Source of the DNA: Owenia fusiformis
Lineage: Eukaryota
Length of the DNA: 64,000 nt
Assembly (NCBI GenBank): GCA_903813345.2
Contig: CAIIXF020000001.1
Location: 1,302,001-1,366,000 of the forward strand
Reading direction: 5' to 3'
The notes beneath the pieces were generated by a model that worked only from the letters and a program-made list of their open reading frames with translations, made no database searches and had not been told where the DNA came from. This document shows, one piece after another, positions 6,428-54,704 of this stretch (positions within the stretch are counted from its first letter, which is position 1; every line of letters begins with the position of its first letter). The translations under genes were made by a program, and so were the position numbers.

Positions 6428-6889
6428 GGTATGAGTACCGTAATCCAACACCAAATTCGAAAATTCATATCAATACTTTGCACATATGGCGTTCGTGATC
6501 AACTTTAAAAAGCTTACCCCCCATAGTGTTATATATCAAAATGTACCTGTTCATATAGGGGTTCGATTGATCTACATCAAATTATAGGGAGTCAGGTTAC
6601 TTTTTGAGATATCAGCGTCCATTTATTGTTACTCGCGTTTGCCACCATTTCCTCAATTCTGAGATGATGGGCAAACGCGTAGTAAACATGCTCACCTCGG
6701 AACTATTTTTGACATACATCGCTATTTTCGTAATTCAAATGAAAGTTGAACCCCTCCTCTTTAATTTGATACCAAATAGTGGCATACTAGGTACCCTAGA
6801 AGCCAACTATGGTGATATTTAGAACAATACGACTAAATGGACTATATAGGGGTCATACCTTTTGGCGGATGGATATGGAATCTCATACC
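6428..6889 (+). mobile_element. ~465-bp TTAA-associated non-autonomous element (Kolobok/piggyBac-type target), copy 1
   Basis: TTAA|GGTATGAG ... CTCATACC termini; the same pseudo-ORF text (MRYQRPFIVTRV...) occurs in three copies. Confidence 0.8.
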
Positions 6890-6891
6890 TA

Positions 6892-8212: not shown

Positions 8213-9003
8213 TTAATATGAGGCCTAAAATTGTCTTCTAGTTGACCAGAGACCAATATTCTAGCAGAATTTGAGAACAGAATCGATTTTTTCGTTCTGC
8301 GTAGGACAAACAATGATTTGAAATCACTTTCAACCATTCTGTGAGTATAAGAATGGTCATAAGAAGCCCGTGGAGGGTCATGCATGAAAGAAAGCCCTCT
8401 GAAATTCCGTCAAAATTGCAGGTTATTTCTTCATTTTTTGCTAAAATTACATGATTTTCAGGGCCTATATCTCAGTGAAATTGCTACAATGTAGCGATTT
8501 TTCATTTTTACAGGCTAGATACACGTGTCAGGTCGACAGAAACAGTAAGCATGGGTGATTTTTAAATTGCTACATTGTAGCAATATTTATTTCAAAATAC
8601 AGGTATGAGGGAAACTGCAATTTAGTTAGATTTGGGCGAAAATGGCCAAATTTCAGTCAAAATCCTCGGGACACAGGGCCTTTGTCTTAGATTTAGTCAA
8701 TGATGCAACTCTTAGTAGAAGGTGTGCCATATAGGGAATGAAAGCTGTTTGTCAGACGTATCATTTTCTTCAATAAACTCAGAGATAGTCAGGTTAGATT
8801 TGTGACGTCACAGTGGCAAAGTTAGACTAGCAAATTTAGACATATTTGGGGTAGGGCAAATTAACCCTTTCTAGCCTAAATGGATAAATTTTTCACATAT
8901 TCAGCCAGTTCCGACGTTTTTATGCATTTTTGAACTAGAAATGATATTTTCTGCCAAAAAAAGTTGCAGAGACAAAAATCAGTGTGATGTCATAAAACAT
9001 TAA

Positions 9004-9472
9004 GGTATGAGGTTCCATATCCATCCGCCAAAAGGTATGACCCCTATATAGTCCATTTAAAAACTCGTGGTATTGTTCTAAATAACGCCATAGTTGGCTT
9101 CTAGGGTACCTAGTATGCCACTATTTGGTATCAAAATAAAGAGGAGGAGTTCAAATTTCATTTGAATTACGAAAATAGCGATGTAGGTCATAAATAGTTC
9201 CGACGTGAGCATGTTTACTACGCGTTTGCCCATCATATCAGAATTGAGGGAGTGGTAGCAAACGCGAGTCACAATAAATGGACGCTGATATCTCAAAAAG
9301 TAACCTGACTCCCTATAATTTGATGTAGATCAATCGAACCCCTATATGAACAGGTACATTTTGATATATAACACTATGGGGGGTAAGCGTTTTATAGTTG
9401 GTCACGAACGCCATATGTGCAAAGTATTGTTATGAATTTTCGAATTTGGTGTTGGATTACGGTACTCATACC
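9004..9472 (-). mobile_element. Same ~465-bp element, copy 3, intact with TTAA on both sides
   Basis: TTAA(9000-9003)|GGTATGAG...CTCATACC|TTAA(9473-9476). Confidence 0.88.
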
Positions 9473-9819
9473 TTAAGCAATTTTATTGGCTCGAAGAATG
9501 CGCATGCGCGGTCAAATTGAAGCTACGAATTACAAGTATAAACAGGGATGTAAACTGAAGGCTAGTTTTCATACCATGATTATCACCGCCCCTCTTTAAA
9601 TGTGCAATCGACTCTTCTTCTATGCGCCGGAAAATTCTAAAGTGAATAATATTCCCGTACGCTACGTGTGCGCCAATAATTAATTCGATGAATCCTCGGC
9701 TCCGACTGAGCTGACTTCTTATAGTCTAAATAGTCCGCTCAACCACTCTTACTACGCGCCAGTAAAAATCACCTATTAATCCACCGTTTTTGTTGTTGTT
9801 TTTTTTATTACACTATCTG

Positions 9820-13099: not shown

Positions 13100-13471
13100 G
13101 TTAGTATTATTTTAACTGATACCGTTTTGAATGACACCGTTTTATTCAGTCCCACATTGTATAACCTCATATCTTTTACTACTTTTTTCAACAACACAAC
13201 TGTATTTAGTACCAATTTCACGATATTGTACCACCGTTTTAGTACAAGTCTATAGAGCATCATTTTATTTAGTACCAAGTTGTTCAGCACCAACAAGCAA
13301 AGCAGTATTTGTCTGTTACAATCAGAAATGCAACTCTTATTACGCGTTCATATTTGAAGGCTCACTCGTTTGATATTCTGTGCAGTTCCTTCCTTTTTTG
13401 AACTGTCTTAAGTTTTTCTCCGTGTTTACTATGTTTTTCTTTCGTGTATTTATTGTTAACTTACTTTACAG

Positions 13472-13647
13472 ATGTTTGGACCAATTATTTACTATTCCCG
13501 GCTTTCTTCTTTCTCCAATACGGTGGACTCTTTTTGTTTGTCACGAGTTTGCAGACTTCAGGCTTGTTCCCAGGAAGTAGATCAACCATACTAGCTGCAT
13601 ACAATGGTCTGTATGATGCAAGCGCTTCTATTGCCATAGTATTTAAG
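13472..13647 (+). CDS. SLC43A3: SLC43A3-like exon 3
   Basis: Acceptor ttactttacAG; DVWTNYLLFPAFFFLQYGGLFLFVTSLQTSGLFPGSRSTILAAYNGLYDASASIAIVFK contains the SLC43 signature LFxxxRSTIxxxYNGxxDxS. Donor AAG|GTGGGT. Confidence 0.9.
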
Positions 13648-13720
13648 GTGGGTATTAAAGCATAACATCGGATCCTTCCCCAATTCTCATGTTTTACCAT
13701 CTCCTCACAATCCCCCACCC

Positions 13721-15120
13721 CATATTTAGCTTTTGGATACTTTTAAAGAATCTTTTCTGGATCGCCATTGATATTCTGTCCAATATATGCCCCCCCCCCC
13801 ATCCTAAGCTTTTGGATACTTTTAATGAATCTTTTCTGGATTACCATTGATATTCTGTCCAATATATGCCCCCCCCCATCTTAAGCTTTTGGATACTTTT
13901 AATGAATCTTTTCTGGATCGCCATTGATATTCTGTCCAATTTATGCCCCCCCCCCATCTTAAGCTTTTGGATACTTTTAATGAATCTTTTCTGGATCGCC
14001 ATTGCTATTCTGTCCAATAAATGCCCCCCCCCCATCTTAAGCTTTTGGATACTTTTAATGAATCTTTTCTGGATCGCCATTGATATTCTGTCCAATATAT
14101 GCCCCCCCCCCCCATCTTAAGCTTTTGGATACTTTTAATGAATCTTTTCTGGATCGCCATTGATATTCTGTCCAATATATGCCCCCCCCCCCATCTTAAG
14201 CTTTTGGATACTTTTAATGAATCTTTTCTGGATCGCCATTGATATTTATCCAATATATGGCCCCCCCCATCTTAAGCTTTTGGACACTTTTAATGAATCT
14301 TTTCTGGATCGCCATTTATATTCTGTCCAATATATTGCCCCCCCCCCCCCATCTTAAGCTTTTGTATACTTTTAATGAATCTTTTCTGGATCGCCATTGA
14401 TATTCTGTCCAATATATGCCCCCCCCCCCCCATCTTAAGCTTTTGGATACTTTTAATGAATCTTTTCTGAATCGCCATTGATATTCTGTCTAATATATGC
14501 CCCCCCCATCTTAAGCTTTTGGATACTTTTAATGAATCTTTTCTGGATCGCCATTGATGTTCTGTCCAATATATGCCCCCCCCCCATCTTAAGCTGTTGG
14601 ATACTTTTAATGAATCTTTTCTGGATCGCCATTGATATTCTGTCCAATATATGCCCCCCCCCATCTTAAGCTTTTGAATACTTTTAATGAATCTTTTCTG
14701 GATCGCCATTGATATTCTGTGCAATATATGCCCCCCCCCCCCATCTTAAGCTTTTGGATACTTTTAATGAATCTTTTCTGCATCGCCATTGATATTCTGT
14801 CCAATATATTGCCCCCCCCCCATCTTAAGCTTTTGGATACTTTTAATGAATCTTTTCTGGATCGCCATTGATATTCTGTCCAATATATGGGCCCCCGCAT
14901 CTTAAGCTTTTGGATACTTTTAATGAATCTTTTCTGGATCGCCATTGATATTCTGTCCAATATATGGGACCCCGCATCTTAAGCTTTTGGATACTTTTAA
15001 TGAATCTTTTCTGGATCGCCATTGATATTCTGTCCAATATATGCCCCCCCCCATCTTAGCTTTTGGATACTTTTAATGAATCTTTTCTGGATCGCCATTG
15101 ATATTCTGTCCAATATATGG
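13721..15120 (+). repeat. Minisatellite, about 18 copies of a ~77-81-bp unit with a variable poly-C tract
   Basis: Unit catcttaagcttttggatacttttaatgaatcttttctggatcgccattgatattctgtccaatatatg + (C)n, in SLC43A3 intron 3. Confidence 0.97.
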
Positions 15121-15743
15121 GCATGTCGTGGTAAAAAAAATTCAAACAGCCGCCATTTTGTTCACTTCAACATTTGAATCATGGTTTTTGATTTTATTTT
15201 CCAATGAAAAATTCCAGAAAACACAGAAGCAATGATCGAGATATTGGTTCGAATCTTTTGGACTGTTTGTATTGAATTTATAGTCGATTATAATTTCAGA
15301 AAATAACGACATTTCGACGTTTTCATTGTTGGAAAATATCGAGTTTCGATCCTGGGAGCCAATCATCCTTGCATTTATTTAAGAGGTCATAGATATCCCA
15401 ATGAGCGATAATTCACAGCAAATGTAAATGAATGTTAAAAACATATCTTCAAACTTTGCATTGGGCCTTTAAATATGTTGAATAAATAAACACTCTTGGA
15501 TATCTAACAAAAGGCAGTTAAGGAAAGACAAAAAAACATTACTACGCATAATATAATTTTGTAACATTTCTAAATGAATGGATTTGCCAAAACTATGTTA
15601 TACCTGTAAAGAACTACAATGCAATAATTTAGAGAATGTTAGAGTATATAATTCTAAACATAGAAATCTACCTTACCTTTCGGCTTGTCTATTTGTTCTT
15701 CTATGATACATTGTAACATGATTGGTCTTCGTTGTGCCTCCAG

Positions 15744-16389
15744 CTTCAGTACGAGAATGGGATTCCCTTGTCTTCTTCCTTGTATGTGTTCCTGTCTGTC
15801 TTCTTGCCAATCACACTCCTGGGGACGTTCATATTTCAACCTCGGAAGCATATCCATTTGGACAACAACGGGAGACATCCAATGGCATTTACCATCTTAC
15901 AACGAATGAGAGTAGCCAGATATATAGCCACAAATGTTGCGCGGGATGAGGAAGTCCAAAAATCCTATTCGACAGATGGAACAAAGGATTGTGCGCCTAG
16001 TGAGAGTAGGGCTGAACTCCAAGGATACACGAATAAAGCATTTGAAGCACCAAATGAAGCAAATCTGAGTGGTCGTGATATCCGTCCAACTGAATCAAAA
16101 ACCGATGATATAAAAACGATAAGTGAGTGTCGACCAAAAGATTTGGTGATCGAAGATTCAACAGCCAATAGTAAAGAAGCGACCACGGACTGTAGCAGTT
16201 TGCCAATCAAAGCTACATCCAAAAATAATACATCTGATATTGAAACAGATAGGCTTTCTAAAATACTGTTTTCACCATTATTTCTATGGAATATATGGAC
16301 ATTTTCTGTATTGAATTTGAGGAGTCAATACTTCTTCGTCTCGTTCAACTCGTGGATTACAGATCTGAGTGCTGGCGATAGAAACCAAG
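15744..16389 (+). CDS. SLC43A3: SLC43A3-like exon 4 (TM segment, large cytoplasmic loop, next TM)
   Basis: Acceptor gcctccAG; LQYENGIPL...TFIFQPRKHI...ILFSPLFLWNIWTFSVLNLRSQYFFVSFNSWI matches SLC43 motifs. Donor CAAG|GTATGA, phase 1. Confidence 0.88.
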
Positions 16390-16545
16390 GTATGAAGTTA
16401 GTTTGAACTAATACATTACCTGATTATAGATTACAACATGTCTTCTTGATCAAGTCTGAGAAAATATTCATGGTAAAAGATGTGACTCTTTAAAATCATT
16501 TGGCATACCAACCTCGTACATTTACCTAACTTGGCCTTATTTCAG

Positions 16546-16665
16546 TCACCTTGCACACGTCCGTGTTCACTGGAACGTTGGCCTTCGGCTTCCTTGTCAG
16601 CCCCCTGGCGGGTTTATTCATCGATGCATGGAGGAAAAGAGAAGATGGGGGCAGTCCACATACAA
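16546..16665 (+). CDS. SLC43A3: SLC43A3-like exon 5
   Basis: Acceptor ccttatttcAG; VTLHTSVFTGTLAFGFLVSPLAGLFIDAWRKREDGGSPHT (PxxGLxxD motif). Donor A|GTTAGT. Confidence 0.85.
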
Positions 16666-21832: not shown

Positions 21833-24800
21833 AATGGTATAAATTACCTGTAAATGTGATCGTAAATGTAATTAAAGACCCTCCATTCCAATACCCCAAT
21901 CCTACACTACTCAAGGGAAAGATCAATACCCGGTGATTTCAGCGGGAAGTGGCGTTTCGTTCAGTGGATGAGCTGCGCGCGCACGCATAAATGTGATTAT
22001 CCAATATAATTAGGGGAGGGCTATTTGAAGTAGTTTTTGGTCTCAGGCGCGACCCAGGGCTGTTGTCTTAAGGACATTTCGTTGAAAATGAGCCATTCGG
22101 CTGATAATTGGTAAGAGTTTGCGATCTTATAATGTATAACTGTTACTCAGACACATATTTTGACACGATTCTGTTGGAAATAAGCTTTGAACCGAGAGAT
22201 ATTCACGATTGATATGCACATTTTTGATTGTGCCATTGCTTTTCTATTGCACAACCCATGTATTGATAGAAGAAACATTAATAATACAGATTGGTTTACC
22301 TTCAATACATGGCAGACACTACATATCGGTATATTAATACCAGTTTGTGCCTTAAATAGTTTTATATTTCCATCCACGGCCTGGAGCCTGGGTGTGTTTG
22401 TCTCTTATGTGTATGCTTGTGCATGGACTTCTAATCACTAGCAGAATTTAACATGATGCAAACTCGACATTATAACTCATGCTGTAACATTTTGACTTCG
22501 CTGGAAAACAATAGGAATTATTTTTCTTGCCAATCAATCATGAATCACAATCAAAATTTCAGAATGATCAATCAGGCAATGATCCAAATCAAGTTATAAC
22601 ATTATATGATATTCAGCAAGAAGTCCGGTAGAAATACAGAATATTTAAACATCAAAGCTGAAAGTTAAAAGCTAATCTGTCAATTTTCTGTCTGCAAAAG
22701 AGCGTCCCAAGAGCGTTTACATTTGACACAATAACAGACTGAGGCCTTGAAATCTAGGATTCCCCAGGAAAATATGACGTCATACTAATTAGCATAAGGA
22801 TTTCCCTATTGGGGTGGGTCGAGCCTTGTTCGAAAACACAATCCATAAATACATGCTAATTTCTAAGGAGATAGGAAGTGTATAACGTGTTTATCGATTT
22901 TGTTTAAAGATTTAATCAATTATCAAATTGTTTAAGTGGATAAAGTGGTCACACTTGCTTCAATTCATAGCGAAATCGACGGATAGAAACTGACCGAATT
23001 CCCGATATCCTACCCCGTATTACTGTAGGCTATAAGCATAGTGACCTACAGAGGGCGCTATCACAAACAAGTACTGGACGAACCGATAAATTCCCGGGTA
23101 TTGTAACGCCCTTGCACTACTCGAGACACATAATTTGTTTGACCAATCACCTTTCCACAAAGTAAAGAAAATCGATAATTTCCTGCGCGCTGATTGGTTG
23201 TATGCAAATGAGTCAAATCAATGACGTCAATGGTAGAAAGTTTTGAAGAATTAGTACAGCCAGCATAGGAATATTTTGAATAAACTACAATAAAAAGGAT
23301 TCTATTTGCCAAATGCACAAATTATTTTTAATCAAATATGAAATATGGACGGGGCACTTTGATTCCGAACCTTATGTAATTTAAATTAATCATTTTTTGA
23401 CAGAACTATTGTTTATTAAGACTTCTGAGATCAGCTTCACATACCCGGGCTCACATATCTCGTGCGATTGTAAACAAAAAATGTAAATTGTGAAGTTACA
23501 AACAACTCGGTTTAATTATCTGATAGTGGTCATACAATATTCTGTTAAATGGTTATATGTCGTAGTAAGAAGTTCCATCATAAATTCACCATGAGTGACA
23601 TTCGCGCAAACTAAACCAATCGAATTGAAACACGATTTGTTTGACTTTGTTATTGAGGATCGATCCCATCTCCATAATACACATTAACAAAATATTTTCA
23701 AAAGCATGCATGAATATGTTACGGTAACTAAAACCATGGGCTTTCAAGATCATGAAAGCCAATGACTAAACTAACTTTCTTTTCATTGGAACTTTTTCCA
23801 GTTGCAATTTCAGTAAAACGTAGAACGGGTTTCTCGCTAAACGCAACTGGGCCTCATTAAAAAACCTTCATTTCATCCTCCAAACTTGGAGAACGCCCAT
23901 TGGCTATTAAAAAGATAACTTCGAAGCCAAATTTTCTATCCAAGAAGCTAGACTTAAACCATTACTTTATTATTTACCAAATGAAATTTGTTCATAGTAC
24001 ATATACGATATCGTTACCTTTTGGTATTAATTCGCCATCAGCGATGTCAATAACGATCAGCAATGTCAACATATCATCAATGAATATTATAGATATACGC
24101 TCTTTCTTTGAAATCTTTCCGGTGATCATTATTCAAAACCGATCATCACATAACTAATTTATCCTATGACAAGTGAGGTTTCACAAGTGAAGTTTTCAGG
24201 ACACATATTTAGGTTTGTTTTCTAAGCGTTCTCATTATTTTCGAGAAATCCATCATCGTTTTGGCTAAGAAAATTTTACGGTCTGCTGGATCTATTTTGA
24301 CAGTTTTGCTTTAGCAAGATATTCTAACAAATTGACTGTTTCTACACTGAATAAAAAACATTTTCCCGGGAATATTTGGATCGGGAGATACGCAGCGGGA
24401 AATATACATTGGAATATATCAATTCTATATTCCGATGTTTTCATGTATAATATTTTCAAGATACGATCTTATATATGACTTGCAGAAATAGATAGGAAGT
24501 AATCGTGATTAGTTAATTGAATTATGGGAGTAGTGAAGTCAATGATTAAATGAATAAGAGCAAATGTTTTTAATTTGAACAGGTCATTCATCAAATGACA
24601 CTGAAGATTAACTTAAAATAGATTGTCTATCTATGTATTTTTATGCATGAGAGAAAATTGTTATAATGTTGGTGAACCAATAATTATGATAATTTCACCT
24701 GTTCACATGCAGTTCCCATTATGATTGAAAAATGACCGGGAGTAATTCTCTTCAATTTATTTACTCATTATGAACAGAAATTTAATATTTAAAACCATTC

Positions 24801-29069: not shown

Positions 29070-30525
29070 CACTCCCCTCCAAAAGTTTGGCAACCTAAGT
29101 TCCCTTGTTGAACAACGTGTTAAAGCTTCTTTATGTTTGAATTTTTATTTAAATAACCTGCGAGGAAAACACCTATAATATTGATGGAAATGTTACTTGA
29201 TTTCATTTCCAATGCCTCCAAATTCTCTCAACCTGTTCCCTCAATTACAATAGGTCGAAAATTGATGATAAATCCGATGAATTTTTGAAAATTGACATTC
29301 CTATGTTAACCGATGAGAAATGGTAGGTTTTCCGCAAGTCATATGACAGAATATTTATCCCTCCGAGTTCTTACAAAACGTACAAGTTAGGTAGGCTAGT
29401 GAATTTGCTAAATTTGTTTAATAAAAAATTGATATGTTTCTTCAGGTTTAAAAAAGTTATAGGCTTTCAAAGCCAAACTTATTTTTCAAAAAACTCCTAT
29501 TGAAATAACACAGGAGGCAAAAAATTATTTTCAAAAATAACTTTGAAGCTATGTAACATTAGTATTCATAAGCAAGCTGAACACTTAGCGTACAAAAAGT
29601 CAGACAATTCAATTTTATATTAAAAATATTTTTTTGGTAAATCTTTTACTGGATAGATATCCTGAAATCCGATTTGGCCCGAACCCACCATTTCCCATTG
29701 GTTTACATGGGAATGACGATTTTCAAAAAAATCATCAAAGAAGGAGGGAAATTAGCGCAACAGATTTTGGACAGTCATATGTTGGATTTTGGCCAATTTC
29801 TGAGGATTTAAACAATGGCATATGTTAGGCCAATGCGTTACCTCCAGGAAAATCACTTCTAGAGATGATAAAACAATTTCGACTATGAAACAGGGTAGAT
29901 GCAAACAACCCACCAACATGTTTTCCTGATTTTCGACCCCTTCCATCCCTGCTTCTTCAATTTTTCTTGCATCAATATGTTGCGTTTTGACACATAGTTA
30001 ACCACTTAAAGGGAATAAATGATTCCTTCAGGGGTTTTAAAGATAACCATTATGGGTGACCAAACTTAGCTGAAAGCAATGATTTTCCCTATGGGAAAAT
30101 AATATGGGAAATATTGTTTTCGACTTTATCTAAAAGGAATCACTTATTCCTTTTAAGGGATTAAATGTGTGTCAAAGCGCAACATATTGATGCAAGAAAA
30201 ATTTAAAAAGCAGGTATGGAGGGGTTGAAAATCAGGAAAACATTACAGAAAAAACATGTTGGTGGGTTGTTTGCATATACCCTGTCTCAAAGTCAAAATT
30301 ATTTTATCATCTCTAGAAGTGATTTTCCTGGAGGTAATACATTGGCCTAACATATGCCATTGTTTAAATCGCCAGGAAATGGCCAAAATCCAACATATGA
30401 CTGTCCAAAATCTGTTGCGCTGATTTCCCTCCTCCTTTATCATCAATTTCGACCTATTGTAAGGGAAAAATGGAAAAAAATTTGAGGCATTGGAAATTAA
30501 GCCAAGTTACGTTTCAATCAATATG
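29070..30525. mobile_element. Tc1-like foldback element with a central ~700-bp palindrome
   Basis: TA|CACTCCCCTCCAAAAGTTTGGCAACC end; 29740-30030 inverted versus 30135-30435; 29185-29272 inverted versus 30437-30522. Confidence 0.7.
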
Positions 30526-30748
30526 TAAGACATTAGGGTTAAATGTTCAAAAATTGATTTCAGATTGGCAAAATAGTTTAAGGTATTAGAATAAGCCTAC
30601 GTAGAAATCCTTTCCTCCGATGTTTGTCAAAAAGTATATTGGTCTTGTATTTTAGTTCAAATCTTACAAAACAATTAAAACGATCACATGCCTAAAATAA
30701 TCAATTCCAAATGTGTTTTGAAACTAATACTATACCTTCTTTTCCTAG

Positions 30749-30862
30749 ATGAATGGAGTCCTCTTGGCGTTGAATTTGACGTTGTTTGGTTTCCCAATCT
30801 ACATTAACAGGCAGCTGAAGACTCAAAAGGATCCACCTAATAATGAGCCCAGTCGTAATTAG
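30749..30862 (+). CDS. SLC43A3: SLC43A3-like terminal exon 8
   Basis: Strong acceptor ccttcttttcctAG, phase 0; MNGVLLALNLTLFGFPIYINRQLKTQKDPPNNEPSRN* supplies the last TM (compare VNVMFMLAILLTFFHPFLVY). It lies after a 12.6-kb intron. Confidence 0.75.
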   Translation: MNGVLLALNLTLFGFPIYINRQLKTQKDPPNNEPSRN

Positions 30863-31283
30863 GAAGAAAATCACGGACTACTATATTCTGGATCTTTAGA
30901 GCGGTGTCTATGTTGCAAAGGCTGGGAACTAAAACTGTTAATTTATTGCTTCGTGAAGATGCTAGATGCATTCTTGGCCCAAGAGTAATTCATTGCATTA
31001 CATGATCTGCTATGAAAGCAGTGAAGGACCGATCTTGAAGGACGGTTAGATGAACACTAATTATAATTTTCAAACTAGAGAGCAGATCTTCCTCAAATAT
31101 ACTATTGAGTCCCAGCGTTAAAGTCTTTTTAATTGAACTTTTTTGTAAATATTTTAACAAATGTACTTTCAACCGAATGTTCCCATGATAACCATATTGA
31201 AACATTCAAACACTTTCTTGTACAGCGACCTCTGAGCATCAACCCAAGATGCCAACTCCTAAGGAACTCCATATAACATGAGT

Positions 31284-34200
31284 CACTGGCATGTAGCGGC
31301 CCTGATATCGATAAATTCTACACGCAATATAACCCGATTTTAGATGCTTGGTTAAAACTTTACACGAAAAAGCCTCGATATCCGGGCATTTACTCTTACA
31401 CTGAACTGAAAATAGCATCGTCTAAACGCGTATGTCTTGGCTTCCGGGTAAGTCTATCAACATTTATACTCAATTGAAAGAGCAGTCGTGCTTATATCAC
31501 TGGCATGTAGCGATTATAGCGGTCCTGTCTTGGCTTATTGAATTGTTACGAAGTTACGTATGCGGTGCGGAAGTTAGAGAGCAAATGACCATCATTTCAA
31601 TGTAATAGTTTATGCAGGAAAATTGAGATTAGGCCATTGGAGTATTTGTTTCATGCATTTGTAAAACATTACCCACTCATAGGTCATACTTATCGTTAAA
31701 CCAATAACTCAAATATATGCCCTTGTACACCGATCACCTGTTGAAATTAATACAGGCCGATTTCAACAAATGTAAAGGGCGATATATTTAAAATCGTATT
31801 CAAGCATGATCACGCCCCACTTCTTTTGTTTTCTTTACAACTAAGCTATGACTGCAGTCTATTCAGTGTTGCGTATCGAACCTTGTTTATTATAAAAATA
31901 GTGCAACAACAAGCAGAATTCACACATTTACCTTATACTTATTCTCAACTGAAGACATTGAATTTATCTCTTAGGTTTTACATTATAAATATCTTAACAT
32001 GCAGAATACGAAAATAGAGGCTTAGGCCCAACTTTGTATGAATTTTATGAGAATAATCTGATTTTAGAGAAATGAAAAGAAAAATGTCCACACCCTACAC
32101 AAAATATTTATGGTTCCCCGGGAATACGTATGTGCTGCTTGTATATTAGAATCGTATTCCAGTTACAGAAAGAAGTACATATCATGCTAAACTATATACA
32201 ACAGTTATGCACTTGGAGGTTTTGGATACAGGGAATATCCCGAGGGATATATAATTCATCTTCCCTTGGTCCCTTCGGTCCCTCGGGAAGATATATTGTT
32301 TATCCCTCGGGATATTCCCTGTATCCAAAACCTCCAATTGCATAACCCCTATATATTGGCCAAGGGATAATCCCAATATCCTGAACCGCGACTATAGGAT
32401 AATATGTTTATCCCATACCAATCTTGGTCATCTGGTTCACATTTTTAAATCGTGGAAACATTTTAGAATATTCATGTCCAGTTTTGTTTTCTTGGCCGTG
32501 GGCGGATTTTCATGTTCTCTCAAATATTCCCATATTCTCTCGAATTTTTTATTGATTAAGTGGATGCTCTTTCCCCTTTTTTAACTATCAAACAGACCCT
32601 GATTGTCTGTGTTTTCTCCATTGCCGTTTACAGTCATTCCGCGAACGTTACAAATTATGAACAAACATGCAAGCGGCGATTATGACGTAGCGGGCAGATA
32701 TACTATATCTGCCCGCTTGGAGCGGGGCGTAAAGCTTTATCCCATGGTTGCAAGGAGGATATAGATCGAATATCACATGATGATATATTTGATATGTGGA
32801 TCAAGATATCATATTTTAGCAAACAATTTACAAACCATCGAATATCACTTTTAAACTATCGAATATCACATCTTAAATAGAGGATATCCTATGATTTATG
32901 AGTGATATGATTTTTATCCACGAATGGATATGATATCTGCACGAGTGAGCGTAGCGAGAGAGTGCAGATATCAACATCCATAAGTGGATTAAAATCATAT
33001 CACGAGTAAATCATAGGATGTTCTTTATATTCCATAGTTAAAGTCATCATCAGAATCGTCGGGAATTAAGTGATTTAAAACGAATTTTCCAAACGATACG
33101 GCAATATTGACACTTAGCCTCGTTTTGAGTCTGAAGTAGCAAAAATCCATAAACCATGGCATACGGCGCCGTATGTCATGGCTAAAAGCCCCCCCCCCCC
33201 CCTAAAACACCGTATGCTATGGTTAAGTGAAAATTTGCCAAAAATATCATATTTTACCACTGATTTCAAAAGTACCGTTTTTATTTTGACATGTTATCCT
33301 ATGGATATCATGCTAACTATGGAATAATATAGGAATATCCTATGGCTCTGAAAAAATATCACTTATATCCATGAGTGGATATTGATATCTTCGCCAGTGA
33401 GCGCAGCGAATGAGTGAAGATACTGATATCCATGAGTGGATATAAGTGATATTTTTGAAAAAACATAGGATTGTCCGTTTATCCCATTGGGAATTATTAT
33501 CCAGCGAACATTGAATAGTCAGATAAATTGCAATGGAAATTCCATTTGGTCTGACATTTTGATTGCGATAATTCAACGAACGTCATATACGTGACGTAAC
33601 AGAGTGGTTTGTATTTAATGCGAACGCCGTAAAAACAAGATCCCAAAAAATAAAAATATATAATAAATATATAAACAATCGTTTTGCTGAATTAATAAAA
33701 AAATTGAAAAAATCAAAACCATCGAATATCACTTTTGAAACCATCGAATATCACTTTTGAAACCATCGAATATCACCTTTCAAAAAGTGACATTCGATGG
33801 TTTCAAAAGTGATATTCGATGATTTGGGAATTGTTTGCTAAAATATGATCTTCATCCACGTATCAATTATATCTTCACGTGATATTCGATCTATATCCTT
33901 GTAACCATGGGATAAATAAGGGTTATGTACTGGGGGGTTTTGGATATGGGGTTTTTCCAGAGGGAGATATGCATATCTACCTGAGGGACCGTAGGGACAG
34001 AAAGTAGATGTGCATATCTCACGAGGGATGAACCCAATATCCAAACCGACCGTACATAACTGCTTTATCCTATACCAAGTAGAGTTTTCAGTAGTACAAG
34101 GTGTAAAAAATAAACAAATCATTCATATGCAAAGTCATTTTATTGCATTTCCACTTTTTTTGGAAGCGGGAAGATACGCCCCGAAGCGGGAAGATATGCA

Positions 34201-37200
34201 CCGAAGCGGGAGATATGACGGGAGATATGGAGGTTCTTGATATGGAAACCTCAAAATCAGGATACGGGATATATCTTTTTCCAACTTATCTCCCTAAAAC
34301 CCTACTTGGCATAGGATAAATCAAGATAATTTCTACTCGCATCTAGTCTATTCCACATATTTGGGAAAAGTGTACAGGAAAATCTCCATGTTCAATTGAT
34401 GTATGATCAATATATACGAATCGAATGTATTCTCGTGTGCATTACAATATCCACATTGAAACATTTTTGGCCTGCAATGGACGTATAATAAATTAGAATA
34501 TGAGGCCGTGTTATCATTCTAATGTAAAGTCATGGTATTTACTGTGGTATTGGGTTGCAAGCTAATATCAGATTCAATGCAAATTAATCATCTAATATCA
34601 GATGCGCGATCAGTCCAATAATCTAATTTCAGGTCATCAGTTCGATATCTAGCACTTGTTCTAACGACACGGTATTACTAGGCTATCATATTATAAATAC
34701 ACACACATATAAAACAATCAAACTGGTACACGATATAAGCACGACTGCTCTTTCAATTGAGTATAAATGTTGATAAACTCACCCGGAAGCCAAGACATAC
34801 ACGTTTAGACGATGCTATTTTCAGTTCAGTGTAAGAGTAAATGCCCGGATATCGAGGCTTTTTCGTGTAAAGTTTTAACCAAGCATCTAAAATCGGGTTA
34901 TATTGCGTGTAGAATTTATCGATATCAGGGCCGCTACATGCCAGTGTTATATCGTGTACCAGTTTGATTGTTTTATATGTGTGTGTATTTATAATATGAT
35001 AGCCTAGTAATACCGTGTCGTTAGAACAAGTGCTAGATATCGAACTGATGACCTGAAATTAGATTATTGGACTGATCGCGCATCTGATATTAGATGATTA
35101 ATTTGCATTGAATCTGATATTAGCTTGCAACCCAATACCAAAGTAAATACCATGACTTTACATTAGAATGATAACACGGCCTCATATTCTAATTTATTAT
35201 ACGTCCATTGCAGGCCAAAAATGTTTCAATGTGGATATTGTAATGCACACGAGAATACATTCAATTCGTATATATTGATCATACATCAATTGAACATGGA
35301 GATTTTCCTGTACACTTTTCCCAAATATGTGGAATAGACTAGATGCGAGTAGAAATTATCTTGATTTATCCTATGCCAAGTAGGGTTTTAGGGAGATAAG
35401 TTGGTAAGATATATCCCGTATCCTGATTTTGAGGTTTCCAAATCAAGAACCTCCATATCTCCCGTCATATCTCCCGCTTCGGTGCATATATTCCCGCTTC
35501 GGGGCGTATCTTCCCGCTTCCAAAAAAGTGGAAATGCAATAAAATGACTTTGCATATGAATGATTTGTTTATTTTTTACACCTTGAACTACTGAAAACTC
35601 TACTTGGTATAGGATAAAGCAGTTATGTACGGTCGGTTTGGATATTGGGTTCATCCCTCCTGAGATATGCACATCTACTTTCTGTCCCTACGGTCCCTCA
35701 GGTAGATATGCATATCTCCCTCTGGAAAAACCCCATATCCAAAACCCCCCAGTACATAACCCTTATTTATCCCATGGTTACAAGGATATAGATCGAATAT
35801 CACGTGAAGATATAATTGATACGTGGATGAAGATCATATTTTAGCAAACAATTCCCAAATCATCGAATATCACTTTTGAAACCATCGAATGTCACTTTTT
35901 GAAAGGTGATATTCAATGGTTTCAAAAGTGATATTCGATGGTTTCAAAAGTGATATTCGATGGTTTTGATTTTTCCATTTTTTTATTAATTCAGCAAAAC
36001 GATTGTTTATATATTTATTATATATTTTTATTTTTTCGGATCTTGTTTTTACGGCGTTCGCATTAAATACAAACCACTCTGTTACGTCACGTATATGACG
36101 TTCGTTGAATTATCGCAATCAAAATGTCAGACCAAATGGAATTTCCATTGCAATTTATCTGACTATTCAATGTTCGCTGGATAATAATTCCCAATGGGAT
36201 AAACGGACAATCCTATGTTTTTTCAAAAATATCACTTATATCCACTCATGGATATCAGTATCTTCACTCATTCGCTGCGCTCACTGGCGAAGATATCAAT
36301 ATCCACTCATGGATATAAGTGATATTTTTCAGAGCCATAGGATATTCCTATATTATTCCATAGTTAGCATGATATCCATAGGATAACATGTCAAAATAAA
36401 AACGGTATTTTTGAAATCAGTGGTAAAATATGATATTTTTGGCAAATTTTCACTTAACCATAGCATACGGTGTTTTAGGGGGGGGGGGGGGCTTTTAGCC
36501 ATGACATACGGCGCCGTATGCCATGGTTTATGGATTTTTGCTACTTCAGACTCAAAACGAGGCTAAGTGTCAATATCGCCGTATCGTTTGGAAAATTCGT
36601 TTTAAATCACTTAATTCCCGACGATTCTGATGATGACTTTAACTATGGAATATAAAGAACATCCTATGATTTACTCGTGATATGATTTTAATCCACTTAT
36701 GGATGTTGATATCTGCACTCTCTCGCTACGCTCACTCGTGCAGATATCATATCCATTCGTGGATAAAAATCATATCACTCATAAATCATAGGATATCCTC
36801 TATTTAAGATGTGATATTCGATAGTTTAAAAGTGATATTCGATGGTTTGTAAATTGTTTGCTAAAATATGATATCTTGATCCACATATCAAATATATCAT
36901 CATGTGATATTCGATCTATATCCTCCTTGCAACCATGGGCTAAAGCTTTACGTCCCGCTCCAAGCGGGCAGATATAGTATATCTACCCGCTACGTCATAA
37001 TCGCCGCTTGCGTGTTTGTTCATAATTTGTAACGTTCGCGGAATGACTGTAAACGGCAATGGAGAAAACACAGACAATCAGGGTCTGTGTGATAGTTAAA
37101 AAAGGGGAAAGAGCATCCACTTAATCAATAAAAATTCGAGAAAATAAATATGGGAATATTTGAGAGAACATGAAAATCCGCCCACGGCCAAGAAAACAAA

Positions 37201-38181
37201 ACTGGACATGAATATTCTAAAATGTTTCCACGATTTAACAATGTGAACCAGATGACCAAGATTGGTATGGGATAAACATATTATCCTATAGTCGCGGTTC
37301 AGGATATTGGGATTATCCCTTAGCCAATATGTAGGGGTTATGCAATTGGAGGTTTTGGATACAGGGAATATCCCGAGGGATATACAATATATCTTCCCGA
37401 GGGACCGAAGGGACCAAGGGAAGATGAATTATATATCCCTCGGGATATTCCCTGTATCCAAAACCTCCAAGTGCATAACTGTTGTATATAGTTTAGCATG
37501 ATATGTACTTCTTTCTGTAACTGGAATACGATTCTAATATACAAGCAGCACATACGTATTCCCGGGGAACCATAAATATTTTGTGTAGGGTGTGGACATT
37601 TTTCTTTTCATTTCTCTAAAATCAGATTATTCTCATAAAATTCATACAAAGTTGGGCCTAAGCCTCCATTTTCGTATTCTGCATGTTAAGATATTTATAA
37701 TGTAAAACCTAAGAGATAAATTCAATGTCTTCAGTTGAGAATAAGTATAAGGTAAATGTGTGAATTCTGCTTGTTGTTGCACTATTTTTATAATAAACAA
37801 GGTTCGATACGCAACATTGAATAGACTGCAGTCATAGCTTAGTTGTAAAGAAAACAAAAGAAGTTGGGACGTGGTCATGCTTGAATACGATTTTAAATAT
37901 ATCGTCCTTTACATTTGTTGAAATCGGCCTGTATTCATTTCAACAGGTGATCGGTGTACAAGGGCATATATTTGAGTTATTGGTTTAACGATAAGTATGA
38001 CCTATGAGTGGGTAATGTTTTACAAATGCATAAAACAAATACTCCAATGGCCTAATCTCAATTTTCCTGCATATTACATTGAAATGATGGTCATTTGCTC
38101 TCTAACTTCCGCACCGCATACGTAACTTCGTAACAATTCAATAAGCCAAGACAGGACCGCTATAATCGCTACATGCCAGTG
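31284..38181 (+). mobile_element. Outer copy of a ~3.45-kb non-autonomous DNA transposon (15-bp TIR CACTGGCATGTAGCG, 6-bp TSD ATGAGT), split by the inner copy
   Basis: ATGAGT|CACTGGCATGTAGCG at 31278/31284 and CGCTACATGCCAGTG|ATGAGT at 38181/38187. Its body is 31284-31497 plus 34953-38181. Confidence 0.92.
31498..34946 (-). mobile_element. Inner, complete, inverted copy of the same transposon, 6-bp TSD TTATAT
   Basis: TTATAT|CACTGGCATGTAGCG (31492/31498) ... CGCTACATGCCAGTG|TTATAT (34946/34952). 34739-34946 is the reverse complement of 31284-31491. Confidence 0.92.
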
Positions 38182-38195
38182 ATGAGTGATTGCTT

Positions 38196-38378
38196 AGCTT
38201 GTATTCGCGAATGTTACTAACGTCTAGCGGCTGCCGGATTACTTACTATTTTATGACCAACTCATTTAGATATGAATAGTACCTTCCACTATTCCATTCA
38301 TATTTAAATGAGTAGCCCATAAAATAGGAGGTTCATCCGGTAGCCGACAGGCTTTAGCTGCATTCGCGAATACAAGCT
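38196..38378. mobile_element. ~180-bp palindromic MITE
   Basis: agcttgtattcgcgaatg ... cattcgcgaatacaagct; a related copy is at 51800-51957. Confidence 0.75.
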
Positions 38379-38463
38379 TATATCAAGAATTATAACTTGA
38401 ACCATTGTATCTATCACATATAAAAAACAAAAAAGCTCTCTGACTCAAACAGGATATACAAAT

Positions 38464-38907
38464 TTATACCACTCTAAGTCCAATTACAGTTGTATAACAT
38501 GGGTCTATAACAACGATATACAGTGGAGAGTGGTATATCGTCATCGTATACAACTCCTCCGTATACACTCCAGCGTATACCACTGTAGAAGTGCATTCTG
38601 GGAAATAATGAATAAAAAAATCATGATTTCCTAGAATCAAGTGACGTCATAAATCAACATCAGCATTATTGAGTTGGCTGTCAATGGGATATTTTTATGG
38701 TTTTTAATTGTTATGATTGTGTTCGAATCAACTGTAATTGAACTTAGAGTGGCATAATAAGATTATATAATGGTTCATTCTGTATATCGTGCATTTTATA
38801 CTCTCGTGAGAATATAATATATTCACTCGTTCGCTACGCTCACTTGTGAATATATCATATACTCACTCGAGTATAAACACGATATACAGAAAGAACCATT
38901 TATATAA
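38464..38907. mobile_element. TIR-bounded unit (38464-38757) plus long hairpin (38763-38907)
   Basis: ttataccactctaagtccaattacagttg versus caactgtaattgaacttagagtggcataa; the hairpin is centred on cactcgttcgctacgctcacttgtg. Confidence 0.7.
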
Positions 38908-39412
38908 CCTCATAATATCCTATTCACTCCAAATATGCCAGTTATCCTCCGATAAGGCGAATTTAAGACATGTACATGTAGGTATATCATGTACAAAATT
39001 GACGCACTATCCTGTCATGTACGAAGACGTAACAAACTTTATCTCTTTTTCATTACACCATCTATTCAATAAATATAAATATATTCATAAATATGATATA
39101 TTATGTACAATTATAAATAAAACAGTATTTCTTTATTATAAATAAAACAGTATTTCTTTTTAATTTATACAGTTATATTCTTAGAAATCTTCCAAGGTCT
39201 TGGACCAGGCATTACTTTTTGTAAGTTAGCTATATACATCGCCCTTTCTTTGGGATTACACCTAACTATATTTCTATAGTATTCAAATACCATTATAAAT
39301 GGAAGGTAGATATGCTTGCACGAAGATAGATATGATATAATATTGTGATGTCATGCATTTCGTTGTGTTCTTTAATAAGAGTGACATCCTCTCTAACAAC
39401 GGCGTTCTTGTT

Positions 39413-39739
39413 CTATACAACGACGGGACGAGAGGACGCAGTTAGATTCAACGGTCCACTCTGTTGTGGCTCAAATACGTTATCGTCCATATACATTGAC
39501 GTAGCATCCACGTTGACACGCAATGGTGCCACGTGAGGTGACGTCATTTTAACACCTGGAGATTTCATTGATTGTCCCATAGACATGAGAATATCTCGAG
39601 AACGGTCCTCTTGTTTTACAATACACGGTGGAGCTGCCGAGACTTCTTGCTTTGCTTGTGCGTGGGTCAACAAGTGTGCTCTGAGGTGGCTTCGCTGAGT
39701 AAAAACTTTATCACAAGTTTCACATTTATGCGAGGATTC
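39413..39739 (-). CDS. odd: odd-skipped/Osr terminal exon (zinc finger 4 and C-terminal tail)
   Basis: Acceptor tatgttttcAG; ESSHKCETCDKVFTQRSHLRAHLLTH...GPLNLTASSRPVVV*. Confidence 0.88.
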   Translation of the reverse strand, partial: ESSHKCETCDKVFTQRSHLRAHLLTHAQAKQEVSAAPPCIVKQEDRSRDILMSMGQSMKSPGVKMTSPHVAPLRVNVDATSMYMDDNVFEPQQSGPLNLTASSRPVVV

Positions 39740-39994
39740 CTGAAAACATATGAAGCTGATGTCAACGTTTTATCCATGGAAATATTGGAACAACTAGAAC
39801 GCAATCTATGTCGATGTAGAAAATCCATGTTAAATCATTTTATATTAATTGTTGATTTTCGTCTATTCATTTTTTTGTTTTTTATTTAAAATAGTCAACA
39901 GAAGGCTATTGTAAGGGTTATGTGCTGATTGAACATGCAGGGTGACCCAAAAGTAGGTTTACAGTTTACAGTAAGAGTTATAGTATACATTCAC

Positions 39995-40520: not shown

Positions 40521-40748
<228 letters not shown>

Positions 40749-51957: not shown

Positions 51958-52526
51958 CATTAGTAAAATATGTTAAAAATTAATATGTTGAAAAGAAGTC
52001 CAATCATCATATATAAATGTCCCATATTCCTGCAGGATATCTTGTCTTCCCACGGTAGTCATAAGTATAAGCTACTATATACCTGCCATCAGAGATAGCT
52101 ACTACTTTCCTATCATTATATTACACTATTCTACAATAATATTTTCGAATATTTTACGAGAATAATTGAGAACTTTATGGCATTTTCTAAGTACTGCTAG
52201 TGGCACTTTCTATCTATTATACATCGCGGTTTGTAACGATTGTGGGAATATTCATGGCTAGATTGGTAAACTCGATTTTGTTGATAAGAACTGATAATAG
52301 AAGTTGTTATATCATTGACTTATAATCCAATTTTAAATTATCTATATCATGTGTTAGATATGATGGCGTTGTTTTCCCTTTCATTGAAATATAGAGTGAT
52401 ATAGATGTCACTAATGTACAATGTTTAGTCAAATGTTCTCCGGAATAGTGTAGAAATGCCAATGTGATTCAATAGGTGGCGCTATTGAAGTTTAATTAAG
52501 GCGTTCTTGGCATGCACCTCACTTGT

Positions 52527-54240
52527 CAGGGCCGTCAGATGGGGGGGTGCGATGGGTGCGACCGCACCCCCCTTTGTCACCCCCAAAAATAAATTTGAAA
52601 AAAAAATTTTGAAAAAAAAAATTTTTGAAAAAAATTTTTTTTATAATTTTTTTTTCATTGACTCATACACTTTGAAAGTACCCAGAAAGCACCAAATAGC
52701 ATCTTAAAATTGTAAAATATTCTAGGGGTATTGGCAACCCCTCACACCCCCCACAAAACAATGGAAAAGTTCTAAATTTATTTTAGTGTTTTGTCTCAGA
52801 CACTTTTAAAGTGCCCAGACATCATCAAATAGCTCCTTGATATAGTAAGTGTTTCTGGGGGACTTGCTCCCCCTCTTGCATCTTGCACTTGCATAGACCC
52901 CCCCCCCCTCGGGCACCCCCCCCTTGACCCCCCCCCCAAAAAAAAATTGTGATTTTCTCAAATTCTTTAATTGACTCATACACTTTAAAAGTGCCCAGAA
53001 AGCACCAAATAGCGTTGTAAAATTGTAAAATTTTCTAGGGGGAGTGGGCCACCCCTCACACCCCAAACAAAACAATGGAAAAGTTCTGAATTTGTTTTAT
53101 GTACTGTCTCAGACACTTTTAAATTGCCCAGACATCATCATCATCCTTGATAAAGTTAACGATTCTGGAAGACTAACACTTACTCGCCCTCTGGCATCCC
53201 CACTCCACCTCCCCCTCTGGCAGCCTCCCCCCCCCTTAACACCCCCCCCCCCAAAAAAAAAGCCAGAAAGCACCAAATAGCAACTTAAAATTGTAAAATT
53301 TTCTTGGGAAATAGGCACTTTTAGGCACAGACACTTTTAAAGTGCCCAAACTTCATCGAATAGCACCTTGATATTGTAAATTTTGATATGGGGGACAAAC
53401 ACTTGCCCCCCCTCTGGCACCCCAGCCCCACCTCCCCCTCTGGCACCCCCCCCCCCCCCCTTTGACACCCCCAAAATTTTAAAAAAAATTGTGATTGTTT
53501 TTCAATGTTTTTATTGACTAATATACTTTAAAAGTGCCAAGACGCACCAAATATCATCTTTAAATTGTAAAATTTTCTAGGAGAGTTAGCCACTCCTCAC
53601 ATCCCCCACAAAACAAAAGAAAATATTCTGAATTTCATGTATTGTCTCAGACATTTTTTAAGTGCCCAGACATCATCAAATAGCACCTTGATATGGTCAA
53701 TGTTTCTGGGGGACAACCCCTTGCTCCCCTACTGGCACCACACCCCACTTCACCTTCTCATCCACTTTGACTCCCCCATAAGAATTTGAAAAAAATGCAC
53801 ATTTTTCTTATTGACTCATAACGCACAGGCGTACCAGCAAATTCGCTCCAAATACAACCAAATTTCAAAATTTTCCTGGGGGAGAACCCCCACACCCCCC
53901 TGAATACTCGGTTTTTTATTCACTCATCTCTTATTCTCATGGTGGTGGCGTACTACTTGGAAAGTTACACTTTGAAAGTGCCCAGAAAGCACCAAATAGC
54001 ATCTCAAAACTGTAAAATTTTCTAGGGGGAGTGGACCACTCCTCACACCCCCCACAAAACAATTGGAACTTTTGGAAGTTGCATTTGTTAATTCCAAACC
54101 AATATAGGGAGTAACTGAGCCCCCCCCCCCCTCTGACTTACGCGATTTGATTTACGCGGCAAAAAAATTGACAATTTTATATTCTCTTTAGTAAGCTAAA
54201 AAACCGCACCCCCCTTGGAGAAAAGTGTCTTACGGGCCTG
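52527..54240. mobile_element. hAT-like non-autonomous element with 5-bp TSD CTTGT and ~300-bp poly-C-rich internal subrepeats
   Basis: CTTGT|CAGGGCCGTCAGA ... TCTTACGGGCCTG|CTTGT; subterminal ccgcacccccc at both ends; repeated aaagtgcccagaaagcaccaaatagc blocks. Confidence 0.8.
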
Positions 54241-54296: not shown

Positions 54297-54704
54297 CACG
54301 CGGTACTAACTTCAATCGTTAATTTGAATTTTTGACCTACCGGATATTTGAAAATCAAGGATTGCGAGTCTCATATTGCACCGTTTTTCTTCAAACTTGT
54401 AACATTCAAATCAAAACAAAATTGCCTTTCTGTCTGTGCATTGCTTTATTGTACAGAGACCCTCGTTTGAGCAGCGTTTTGGTCCCCGGCTGTGAGAAGC
54501 CCTTCTAACAGCTGGGGACCAAAATGCCGCTGAAAGTAAGGACTCTCTGTAGCAAAGTAATGTACCAACAGAAAGGCATTTTTGTTAAGCTTTGCCCGGA
54601 ACGAGTTTGAAGAAAAACGGTGCAGTAAGAGACTCGCAATCCTAAATTTTCAAACGACCGGTAGGTCTGAAATTCAAATTAACTGTCAAAGTTAGTACCG
54701 CGTG
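54297..54704. mobile_element. Almost fully palindromic 408-bp MITE, CAC termini, 5-bp TSD TTTAT
   Basis: TTTAT|CACGCGGTACTAACTT ... AAGTTAGTACCGCGTG|TTTAT; the arms pair up to the centre near 54500. Confidence 0.85.

Follow-up and report, generated by a model that had tools for sequence, protein, structure and literature searches.

Background

In maize, nested inverted copies of a single transposon are the textbook cause of chromosome breakage. In the double Ds of the Ac/Ds system (hAT), a Ds element has inserted the opposite way round into another Ds identical to it. A different maize locus, Mu killer, came about when an autonomous element was rearranged into an inverted transposon duplication; it yields a hairpin RNA and silences its family.

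The lineages of DNA transposons with which such structures can be compared differ in their termini and in the length of the target-site duplication. Ds is described with an 8-bp duplication and an 11-bp terminal inverted repeat (TIR), TTTCATCCCTA (PMC3260210). For the CMCT clade (EnSpm/CACTA, Mirage, Chapaev and Transib), 5'-CA..TG-3' ends in the majority of cases, along with duplications of 2-5 bp, are given (PMC12730594). A duplication of 6 bp is given as usual for IS3EU/GingerRoot and as the length for Polinton, and one of 4-10 bp for MuDR/Mutator (PMC10045372), while Dada is described as having duplications of 6-7 bp, lacking TIRs and targeting U6, U1 or tRNA genes (PMC3706591).

Here we analyze a 64-kb stretch of the genome of the marine invertebrate Owenia fusiformis (assembly GCA_903813345.2, contig CAIIXF020000001.1, positions 1,302,001 to 1,366,000), hereafter the window, in which coordinates are counted from its first base. 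In keeping with this host, the proteins most similar to those of the window are annelid. As judged from its sequence, a 6.9-kb structure in this marine animal genome is very probably a nested pair of non-autonomous DNA transposons of the cut-and-paste (TIR) type, both from a single family.

Results and discussion

Anatomy of the nested pair

The 15-mer CACTGGCATGTAGCG occurs exactly four times in the window, at 31284 and 31498 on the forward strand and at 34946 and 38181 on the reverse strand, against 0.42 occurrences expected; a count of four was reached in none of 100 shuffles, even with three mismatches allowed. All four ends read CACTGG...CCAGTG, forming a perfect 15-base TIR. The outermost termini are flanked by exact copies of ATGAGT and the inner ones by exact copies of TTATAT (Table 1), the chance of each exact 6-bp duplication being, by simple arithmetic, 1/4096. 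No consistent 7-base duplication can be read, as the outer one ends at six bases and the inner one extends to seven only if the first base of the element is shifted. At the matching site of the intact inner copy, the target hexamer is present once and uninterrupted (ATATAA, 34733-34738).

The whole pair, including the outer target duplications, spans 31278-38187, and its segments follow the order A> B> <A <B. The arms, 31498-34738 and 34947-38181, are covered by inverted-repeat pairs I1-I9 with 95-100% complementarity, and the A segment is repeated in inverted orientation at 31284-31498 and 34732-34946 (pair I6, 99% complementary). Deletion of 31498-34952, that is, the inner copy together with one hexamer, leaves a full-length element of 3443 bp (31284-31497 joined to 34953-38181). 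Over its whole length this element can be aligned with the inner copy of 3449 bp, which would have entered it 208 bp from its A-end. There are thus two inverted arms of 3.2 kb on either side of a 208-bp loop, and four ends recognisable to a transposase lie inside 6.9 kb.

An initial annotation of this DNA had proposed that a transposon entered a copy of itself in the reverse direction, and the four identical termini, the two exact 6-bp duplications and the intact target hexamer uphold this core reading. Its coordinates and segment order are borne out by the tiling of the arms with inverted-repeat pairs; the second full-length element that it restored is recovered here; and the two independent 6-bp duplications that it described are both exact and located precisely at the element ends. 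Its length of about 208 bp for the A segment is right when the target hexamer is left out, whereas with the hexamer the segment measures 214 bp.

Table 1. Features of the nested transposon pair and of the flanking genes, in window coordinates.
Feature	Coordinates	Strand	Evidence
SLC43/LAT4-like transporter gene (exons from 697), last coding exon with TAA stop	30749..30862	+	tblastn, translation, Atlas name
Outer element, left target-site duplication ATGAGT	31278..31283		read directly; same hexamer at 38182-38187
Outer element, A-end segment, 214 bp, starting with CACTGGCATGTAGCG, last six bases TTATAT	31284..31497	-	terminus match, alignment
Inner element, left target-site duplication TTATAT, outer-element sequence	31492..31497		same hexamer uninterrupted once in inner copy
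Inner element, complete, 3449 bp, non-coding, CACTGGCATGTAGCG at both termini	31498..34946	+	termini, ORF list, Pfam
Internal palindrome, 143 bp, 85% self-complementary; related second one at 33907-34073	32204..32346	+	self-comparison
Internal module of inner copy, inverted arms of ~175 bp at 32736-32908 and 33748-33916 (83%)	32736..33916	+	inverted-repeat comparison
Inner element, A-end, 208 bp, loop or spacer between the arms	34739..34946	+	pair I3; predicted fold
Inner element, right target-site duplication TTATAT	34947..34952		read directly, alignment
Outer element, B segment of 3229 bp, with the reverse-complemented terminus at its end	34953..38181	-	alignment, terminus match
Outer element, right target-site duplication ATGAGT	38182..38187		identical to 31278-31283
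C2H2 zinc-finger gene, last long frame, pointing towards the pair from its right side at a distance of about 1.2 kb	39416..39769	-	Pfam zf-C2H2, E 1.3e-06

We posit that a first 3.45-kb copy inserted downstream of the SLC43-like gene and would thereby have duplicated ATGAGT, and that another member of this family would later have inserted into it in the opposite orientation, near its A-end, duplicating TTATAT. The interrupted copy would then be the older of the two. The terminal inverted repeats and target duplications point to cut-and-paste chemistry, with a transposase that would have been supplied in trans by an element outside the window and would have made 6-bp staggered cuts in the target.

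Divergence of the copies and other origins of the inverted arms

The inner and outer copies are 99.07% identical over 3438 aligned bases (3406 matches), from end to end, and are separated by 32 substitutions (0.93%) and eight indel events over 16 columns. The substitutions comprise 20 transitions and 12 transversions, with 7 of the 32 in a CpG context, and the differences are evenly distributed along the element, an equally large gap being seen in 42% of random placements. The indel that the initial annotation had quoted as an example of the differences between the arms is real: TAGTT, found at 31606, is missing near 38066. Six of the eight indels involve 1-2 bases in homopolymer runs, the same signature as long-read errors; the larger ones are of 5 bp and 4 bp.

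Assemblers are known to stumble over long inverted repeats, and together with the homopolymer indels this might favor an assembly artefact, whereby two separate copies, or one copy and its own reverse complement, were misjoined at a locus that really holds a single copy. However, a fold-back read would yield the order A B B' A' and would lack transposon ends where it turns back, whereas nested insertion gives A B A' B', which is the order seen here. Both inner junctions consist of a complete terminus plus TTATAT, a hexamer that the intact copy carries a single time at the corresponding position; further, the 20:12 transition bias speaks against misassembly and the 5-bp and 4-bp indels are atypical of read noise. 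The pattern of differences looks like mutation rather than assembly noise, and we regard misassembly as very improbable. A simple fold-back palindrome is rejected, the segment order being wrong, and the earlier view that this is not a perfect assembly fold-back holds on the strength of both that order and the scattered substitutions and indels.

Replication or repair mechanisms, such as template switching or hairpin-primed synthesis, do produce long inverted repeats with short spacers, and could in principle have generated an inverted duplication of the element with no second transposition. Nevertheless, they would not account for the full transposon terminus that each junction carries, for a 6-bp target duplicated in direct orientation on both sides or for the A B A' B' order, and with the junction anatomy already contradicting it this origin is hardly credible.

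Coding capacity, internal structure and affinities of the element

The element has no stop-to-stop frame above 110 aa. A Pfam scan covering 101 of the 108 stop-to-stop frames of at least 75 aa in the window recovered no transposase family, its only matches being C2H2 zinc fingers and one sub-threshold match to VEG; the other seven frames comprise five in a 78-bp satellite (13844-14978) and those at 15722-15946 and 35873-36109. Hence, lacking both a frame above 110 aa and a Pfam transposase, the element is non-autonomous. Internally it is rich in self-complementary sequence (Table 1): three palindromes lie within the internal module (32877-33028, 33337-33471 and 33716-33825), of which the third is built of 22-bp units (AAACCATCGAATATCACTTTTG).

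The window holds no third copy of the element. A piece of one internal palindrome (32905-32971) has a 69-base relative with 77% identity outside the pair at 38817-38885, and a 52-base match lies at 24133-24183. Public metagenome contigs contained no stretch matching a degenerate 25-base pattern that took in both ends. The plain 15-mer CACTGGCATGTAGCG was found there at no fewer than 120 loci, with a single site each among the matches listed; among these, at most 14 of the 25 bases that follow at either end of the element agreed, and the longest alignment with the element by BLAST spanned 36 bases at 81%. We therefore set the listed loci aside as chance hits rather than further copies of the family. 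Of 18 sequencing runs listed for the stretch, 15, from six studies, contain part of it; the small shares in plankton and seawater metagenome runs lend support to no claim. As a text string, the terminus did not turn up in the literature searched.

Among known systems, the maize double Ds offers the closest parallel, for in both a non-autonomous TIR element is nested in reverse near the end of its own copy, resulting in four termini and long inverted arms. The Owenia pair likewise combines members of the same family (99.07% identity), an interruption in the opposite orientation that duplicates sequence of the host copy, and a separate duplication around the outer element. In contrast to the double Ds, it displays a 6-bp duplication, the terminus CACTGGCATGTAGCG, an animal host and copies that are 0.93% apart. 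Membership of the Ac/Ds (hAT) group itself is rejected, the duplications being of 6 bp rather than 8 bp and the terminus being different.

The CAC...GTG ends agree with the CA..TG termini of the CMCT clade, whereas the 6-bp duplication, seen in 2 of 2 insertions (the two insertions from which family membership, copy number and the 6-bp rule are likewise derived), falls outside the 2-5 bp of that clade. CMCT elements are further characterized by a DDE transposase bearing the motifs C(2)C and H(3-4)H, while the element described here is non-coding. IS3EU/GingerRoot shares the 6-bp duplication, but is rejected on account of its TA..TA (or TG..CA) termini as against the CA...TG ends and 15-base TIR of the present element. 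Dada is likewise rejected in view of the perfect 15-base TIR and of the window yielding no Rfam match and no tRNA by ARAGORN. Polinton/Maverick elements are large and encode a polymerase and an integrase. Despite the 6-bp duplication, membership of that group is rejected for an element of only 3.45 kb with so little coding capacity. With regard to MuDR/Mutator, 6 bp falls within the 4-10 bp range; the element, being non-coding, has no transposase to compare with that of MULEs, and CAC termini are not known to be typical of MULEs.

Age and source of the inner copy

The initial annotation had favored local hopping or self-targeting and, at the same time, a recent and unstable structure; given the 0.93% divergence and eight indels, these two proposals are in tension. 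One of two ways to read the divergence is to derive the inner copy, by a local hop, from the outer copy or from its sister chromatid; the structure has then persisted long enough to collect about 40 differences and can be called neither very young nor highly unstable. The other is that the insertion is recent and its donor was another, already diverged copy, in which case there was no self-hop.

The former corresponds to a self-insertion of the double-Ds type, whereby the inner copy would have been excised from the element on the sister chromatid or from a tightly linked copy, the two would have been identical at birth, and the 0.93% divergence would measure the age of the event. Cut-and-paste elements often reinsert close to their donor, which is how the maize double Ds is explained, and the even spread of differences over the full length is what is expected if all of them post-date the event. 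On the other hand, self-targeting is deduced from a single event, which on its own does not distinguish it from the chance arrival of a copy from another site, and the 3.2-kb inverted repeat would have to have outlasted about 40 mutations, contrary to a structure that is unstable and recent. On balance, we consider self-insertion a tentative proposal, with the odds somewhat against it.

Potential for hairpin RNA

The pair lies between two genes that converge on it from both sides. It begins 421 bp downstream of the stop codon of the SLC43-like gene, and those 421 bases contain neither AATAAA nor ATTAAA; on the other side, the zinc-finger gene has additional Pfam zinc fingers at 40521-40748 (E 3.1e-13). 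The central 806 nt of the pair are predicted to form one uninterrupted stem, at -568.6 kcal/mol as against -177 for shuffles (z = -48.7). By analogy with Mu killer, transcripts from either gene might thus fold into a 3.2-kb stem, from which small RNAs could silence the family. The likeness lies in a long inverted transposon repeat placed where transcription of a neighboring gene could run through it; the difference is that the Owenia pair is a nesting of two non-autonomous copies. However, the fold is a trivial outcome of any such inverted repeat, and a role of this kind would follow from the insertion instead of explaining how the pair arose. We deem it unlikely that the pair serves as a source of hairpin RNA. 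Also improbable, in our estimate, is the broader proposal of an undescribed animal transposon lineage, combining CMCT-type CAC...GTG ends with a 6-bp duplication, whose 3.2-kb hairpin 421 bp past a stop codon could, if transcribed, act as a natural Mu-killer-like trigger silencing its own family.

Conclusions

The nested reverse pair is a real but ordinary structure, of a kind long known from the maize double Ds. It is most likely a by-product of transposition with no function of its own, though such an arrangement may have consequences, including alternative transposition and the formation of hairpin RNA or DNA. Its only mildly unusual feature is that CAC...GTG ends go together with 6-bp duplications, as seen in two insertions.

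Where only a short spacer separates long inverted repeats, they form a fragile site and a source of double-stranded RNA. In a marine invertebrate, a natural example situated between convergent genes would offer a convenient locus for following the persistence, breakage and polymorphism of such structures in wild populations. The same locus in Owenia fusiformis would also serve the question of whether nested inverted pairs feed small-RNA silencing.

Architecture and origin of the nested pair

The evidence supports the 6.9-kb structure at 31278-38187 as one copy of a 3.45-kb element nested inside another. A repeat scan of 30000-39500 recovered two long inverted arms, tiled by nine inverted-repeat pairs (95-100% complementary) around a 208-nt loop, along with an extra inverted pair of 215 nt, bearing out the order A> B> <A <B of short (A) and long (B) element segments in the initial annotation. 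The 15-mer CACTGGCATGTAGCG occurs at exactly four sites in the 64-kb window (0.42 expected by chance; four reached in 0 of 100 shuffles), with no further site there when up to three mismatches are allowed; because termini lie only at these positions, the parse of the pair is unique. Junctions read from the sequence at all four termini likewise confirm the two separate exact 6-bp duplications claimed, ATGAGT and TTATAT. By simple arithmetic, an exact 6-bp direct repeat at the element ends has a chance of 1/4096 each, and the two are independent. Each inner junction has a complete terminus abutting TTATAT, and the hexamer is present once, as a single ATATAA, at the matching position of the intact copy. 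The termini, hexamers and segment order thus uphold the nesting interpretation. A fold-back, whether biological or from a chimeric read, predicts the order A B B' A' and is rejected by the observed A B A' B', whereas mis-assembly as the source is unlikely, as the anatomy of the pair speaks against it. The interrupted, outer copy must be older than the inner one. The nested pair is a further instance of the known double-Ds-type arrangement, from an unclassified non-autonomous family.

Coordinates of the nested pair, its internal modules and other repeats in the window (for junctions, the start on the + strand or the end on the - strand of CACTGGCATGTAGCG; a slash marks the element boundary)
Feature	Position	Details
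Outer left junction	31284, +	...AAC ATGAGT/CACTGG...
Inner left junction	31498, +	...GC TTATAT/CACTGG...
Inner right junction	34946, -	...CCAGTG/TTATAT CG...
Outer right junction	38181, -	...CCAGTG/ATGAGT GAT...
Long inverted arms	31498-34738 / 34947-38181	
Extra inverted pair	31284-31498 / 34732-34946	
Target site in uninterrupted copy	34733-34738	
Palindrome	32204-32346	relative at 33907-34073
1.18-kb unit	32736-32908 / 33748-33916	175-base inverted arms bounding the unit
Palindromes within 1.18-kb unit	32877-33028, 33337-33471, 33716-33825	last composed of 22-base units
Relative of in-element module 32905-32971	38817-38885	diverged (77%), palindromic module; 630 bp right of pair
Inverted-arm structure, ~3.4 kb	1588-5007	~690-bp arms 1588-2280 / 4313-5007, 81-87%
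Complex block	6424-9476	direct repeats interleaved with inverted repeats
Direct repeats in block	6891-6973/9003-9085; 6971-7093/7499-7621; 7365-7501/7689-7825; 7823-8122/9083-9382	100%
Inverted repeats in block	6424-6833 vs 9067-9476 and vs 7823-8216	96%
Tandem array	13703-15130	18 copies of ~78-bp unit with poly-C runs (CCCCCCCCCCCATCTTAAGCTTTTGGATAC...); SLC43-like intron between exons 13471-13650 and 15729-16664
Palindrome, ~700 bp	29737-30438	two nested inverted pairs, 29737-29924/30251-30438 (93%) and 29931-30028/30134-30231 (86%); last SLC43-like intron, ~300 bp upstream of last exon
Dispersed or tandem repeats	52649-54081	~82-116 bp; adjoin the next palindrome
Palindrome	54297-54704	203-nt arms, 2-nt spacer, 80%

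Comparison of the two copies

When the inner copy and one hexamer (31498-34952) were cut out and the remaining 3443 bases reverse-complemented, these and the inner copy, of 3449 bases, aligned over their whole length at 99.07% identity (3406 matches, 32 mismatches and 8 indels occupying 16 columns; Jukes-Cantor distance 0.0094), so that the second full-length element said to be restored by this removal is indeed present. The substitutions comprise 20 transitions and 12 transversions, 7 of the 32 being in CpG context. Six of the eight indels are of 1-2 bases in homopolymer runs and the other two are of 4 and 5 bases; the arm indel quoted in the initial annotation is a real one among them (TAGTT at 31606, missing near 38066). 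The 40 differences are evenly distributed (the widest gap, 363 bases, is equalled or exceeded in 42% of random placements), and hence show no sign of conversion tracts or a mosaic. If the copies were identical at nesting, the hop having been local or from the sister chromatid, the structure has outlived ~40 mutations and is not especially recent or unstable; if the nesting was instead recent and the donor a diverged copy from elsewhere, there was no self-hop. Self-targeting, which had been proposed alongside a recent origin, cannot be shown by one event.

Nature and affinities of the element

The element is non-coding: the longest of the 31 stop-to-stop frames of >=60 aa overlapping 31000-38500 has 110 aa, and no transposase family match was obtained among the element frames scanned. 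Nor was a transposase found anywhere in the window, among 101 of its 108 frames of >=75 aa; outside that scan were five frames in the 78-bp satellite (13844-14978) and those at 15722-15946 and 35873-36109. Both ends share the perfect 15-base terminus, followed by an imperfect continuation, TAGCGGYCCTG, shifted at the B-end by an extra TAGCGATTA. Both subterminal regions also contain the 11-base motif TGTCTTGGCTT, pointing inward, a match of a size that is only marginally unexpected between two 300-base regions (~0.04 by our own estimate). Internally, the element consists of stacked palindromic modules; those of the 32905-32971 type seem to represent a separate MITE-like family that it acquired. 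The element as a whole has the look of a non-autonomous composite that carries small fold-back sequences.

No other copies of the element occur in the window. In public metagenome contigs, a degenerate pattern of 25 bases built on the two ends had 0 matching stretches; the bare CACTGGCATGTAGCG was found there at at least 120 loci, with a single site each among those listed, and these listed matches are chance hits. As text, the terminus was not found in the literature, supplementary files being outside the search.

According to the excerpted part of the Repbase paper (PMC4455052), for non-autonomous DNA transposons, the class is assigned largely from terminal sequences and duplication features. 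The IS3EU/GingerRoot elements, as characterized in a section of PMC10045372, have 6-bp duplications and TA..TA or TG..CA ends, and are ruled out by the CACTGG...CCAGTG ends seen here. The relevant extract of PMC3706591 describes Dada as having 6-7-bp duplications, no terminal inverted repeats and a location in U6, U1 or tRNA genes; it is ruled out by the perfect terminal inverted repeat of our element and by the 64-kb window, in which no Rfam families or tRNA genes were found. The EnSpm/Mirage/Chapaev/Transib clade shares its CA..TG ends with the element, but has duplications of 2-5 bp in the account excerpted from PMC12730594, as against 6 bp in both events here. Similarly, Ac/Ds differs in its 8-bp duplication and its own terminal inverted repeat (extract of PMC3260210), in contrast to 6 bp and CACTGGCATGTAGCG. 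The 6 bp falls inside the 4-10-bp range given for MuDR in the same section of PMC10045372, length being the sole criterion compared. We leave the family unclassified, with ends like those of the EnSpm/Mirage/Chapaev/Transib clade and an atypical duplication length, on the basis of two insertions only.

Genomic neighborhood

Across the window, GC content stays at 30-40%. At 661-1101, the first long frame is similar to animal proteins named 'large neutral amino acids transporter small subunit 4-like', its best database relatives being two proteins of the annelid Owenia fusiformis (85% and 76% identity on that exon); tblastn with these two mapped six exons of an SLC43-like gene on the + strand, from 697 to 30853, and the frame stops at a TAA (30860-30862). 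The pair starts 421 bases past this stop. As no AATAAA or ATTAAA is found in 30863-31283, from the stop to the point where the pair starts, the 3' UTR of the SLC43-like gene may extend into transposon sequence. To the right, the end of a C2H2 zinc-finger gene, encoded on the - strand, is near 39416. The pair is flanked by the ends of two genes that converge on it, and may be part of a 3' UTR or lie immediately past one. In the stretch separating the zinc-finger frame from the pair, the minus strand has four AATAAA/ATTAAA hexamers.

Among the other repeats, the 6424-9476 block may stem from duplication in the very recent past, from nested elements or from faulty assembly. The 1588-5007 structure, whose ends (GATGTTGAGGTAG...) are unlike those of the 3.45-kb element, represents a different family and is an older element, of long-TIR or fold-back type. 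GC skew is strongly negative around the 52649-54081 repeats (-0.24 at 52001-54000).

Proposed mechanism and consequences

The pair most likely arose passively, as the by-product of two transpositions in succession, each with target cuts staggered by 6 bp; the 3.45-kb element would be mobilised in trans by another, not found in the window. Four ends within 6.9 kb would be expected to let a transposase pair ends of different copies, and such pairing is the explanation offered for chromosome breakage by nested Ds. In the predicted fold, the central 806 nt form a single unbroken stem with the 208-nt loop at its tip (-568.6 kcal/mol vs -177 ± 8 for 20 shuffles), as is trivially expected from the inverted repeat. 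Given that the arms are able to pair, any transcript reading through the pair would form a long stretch of double-stranded RNA, and the DNA of the pair is a candidate fragile site.
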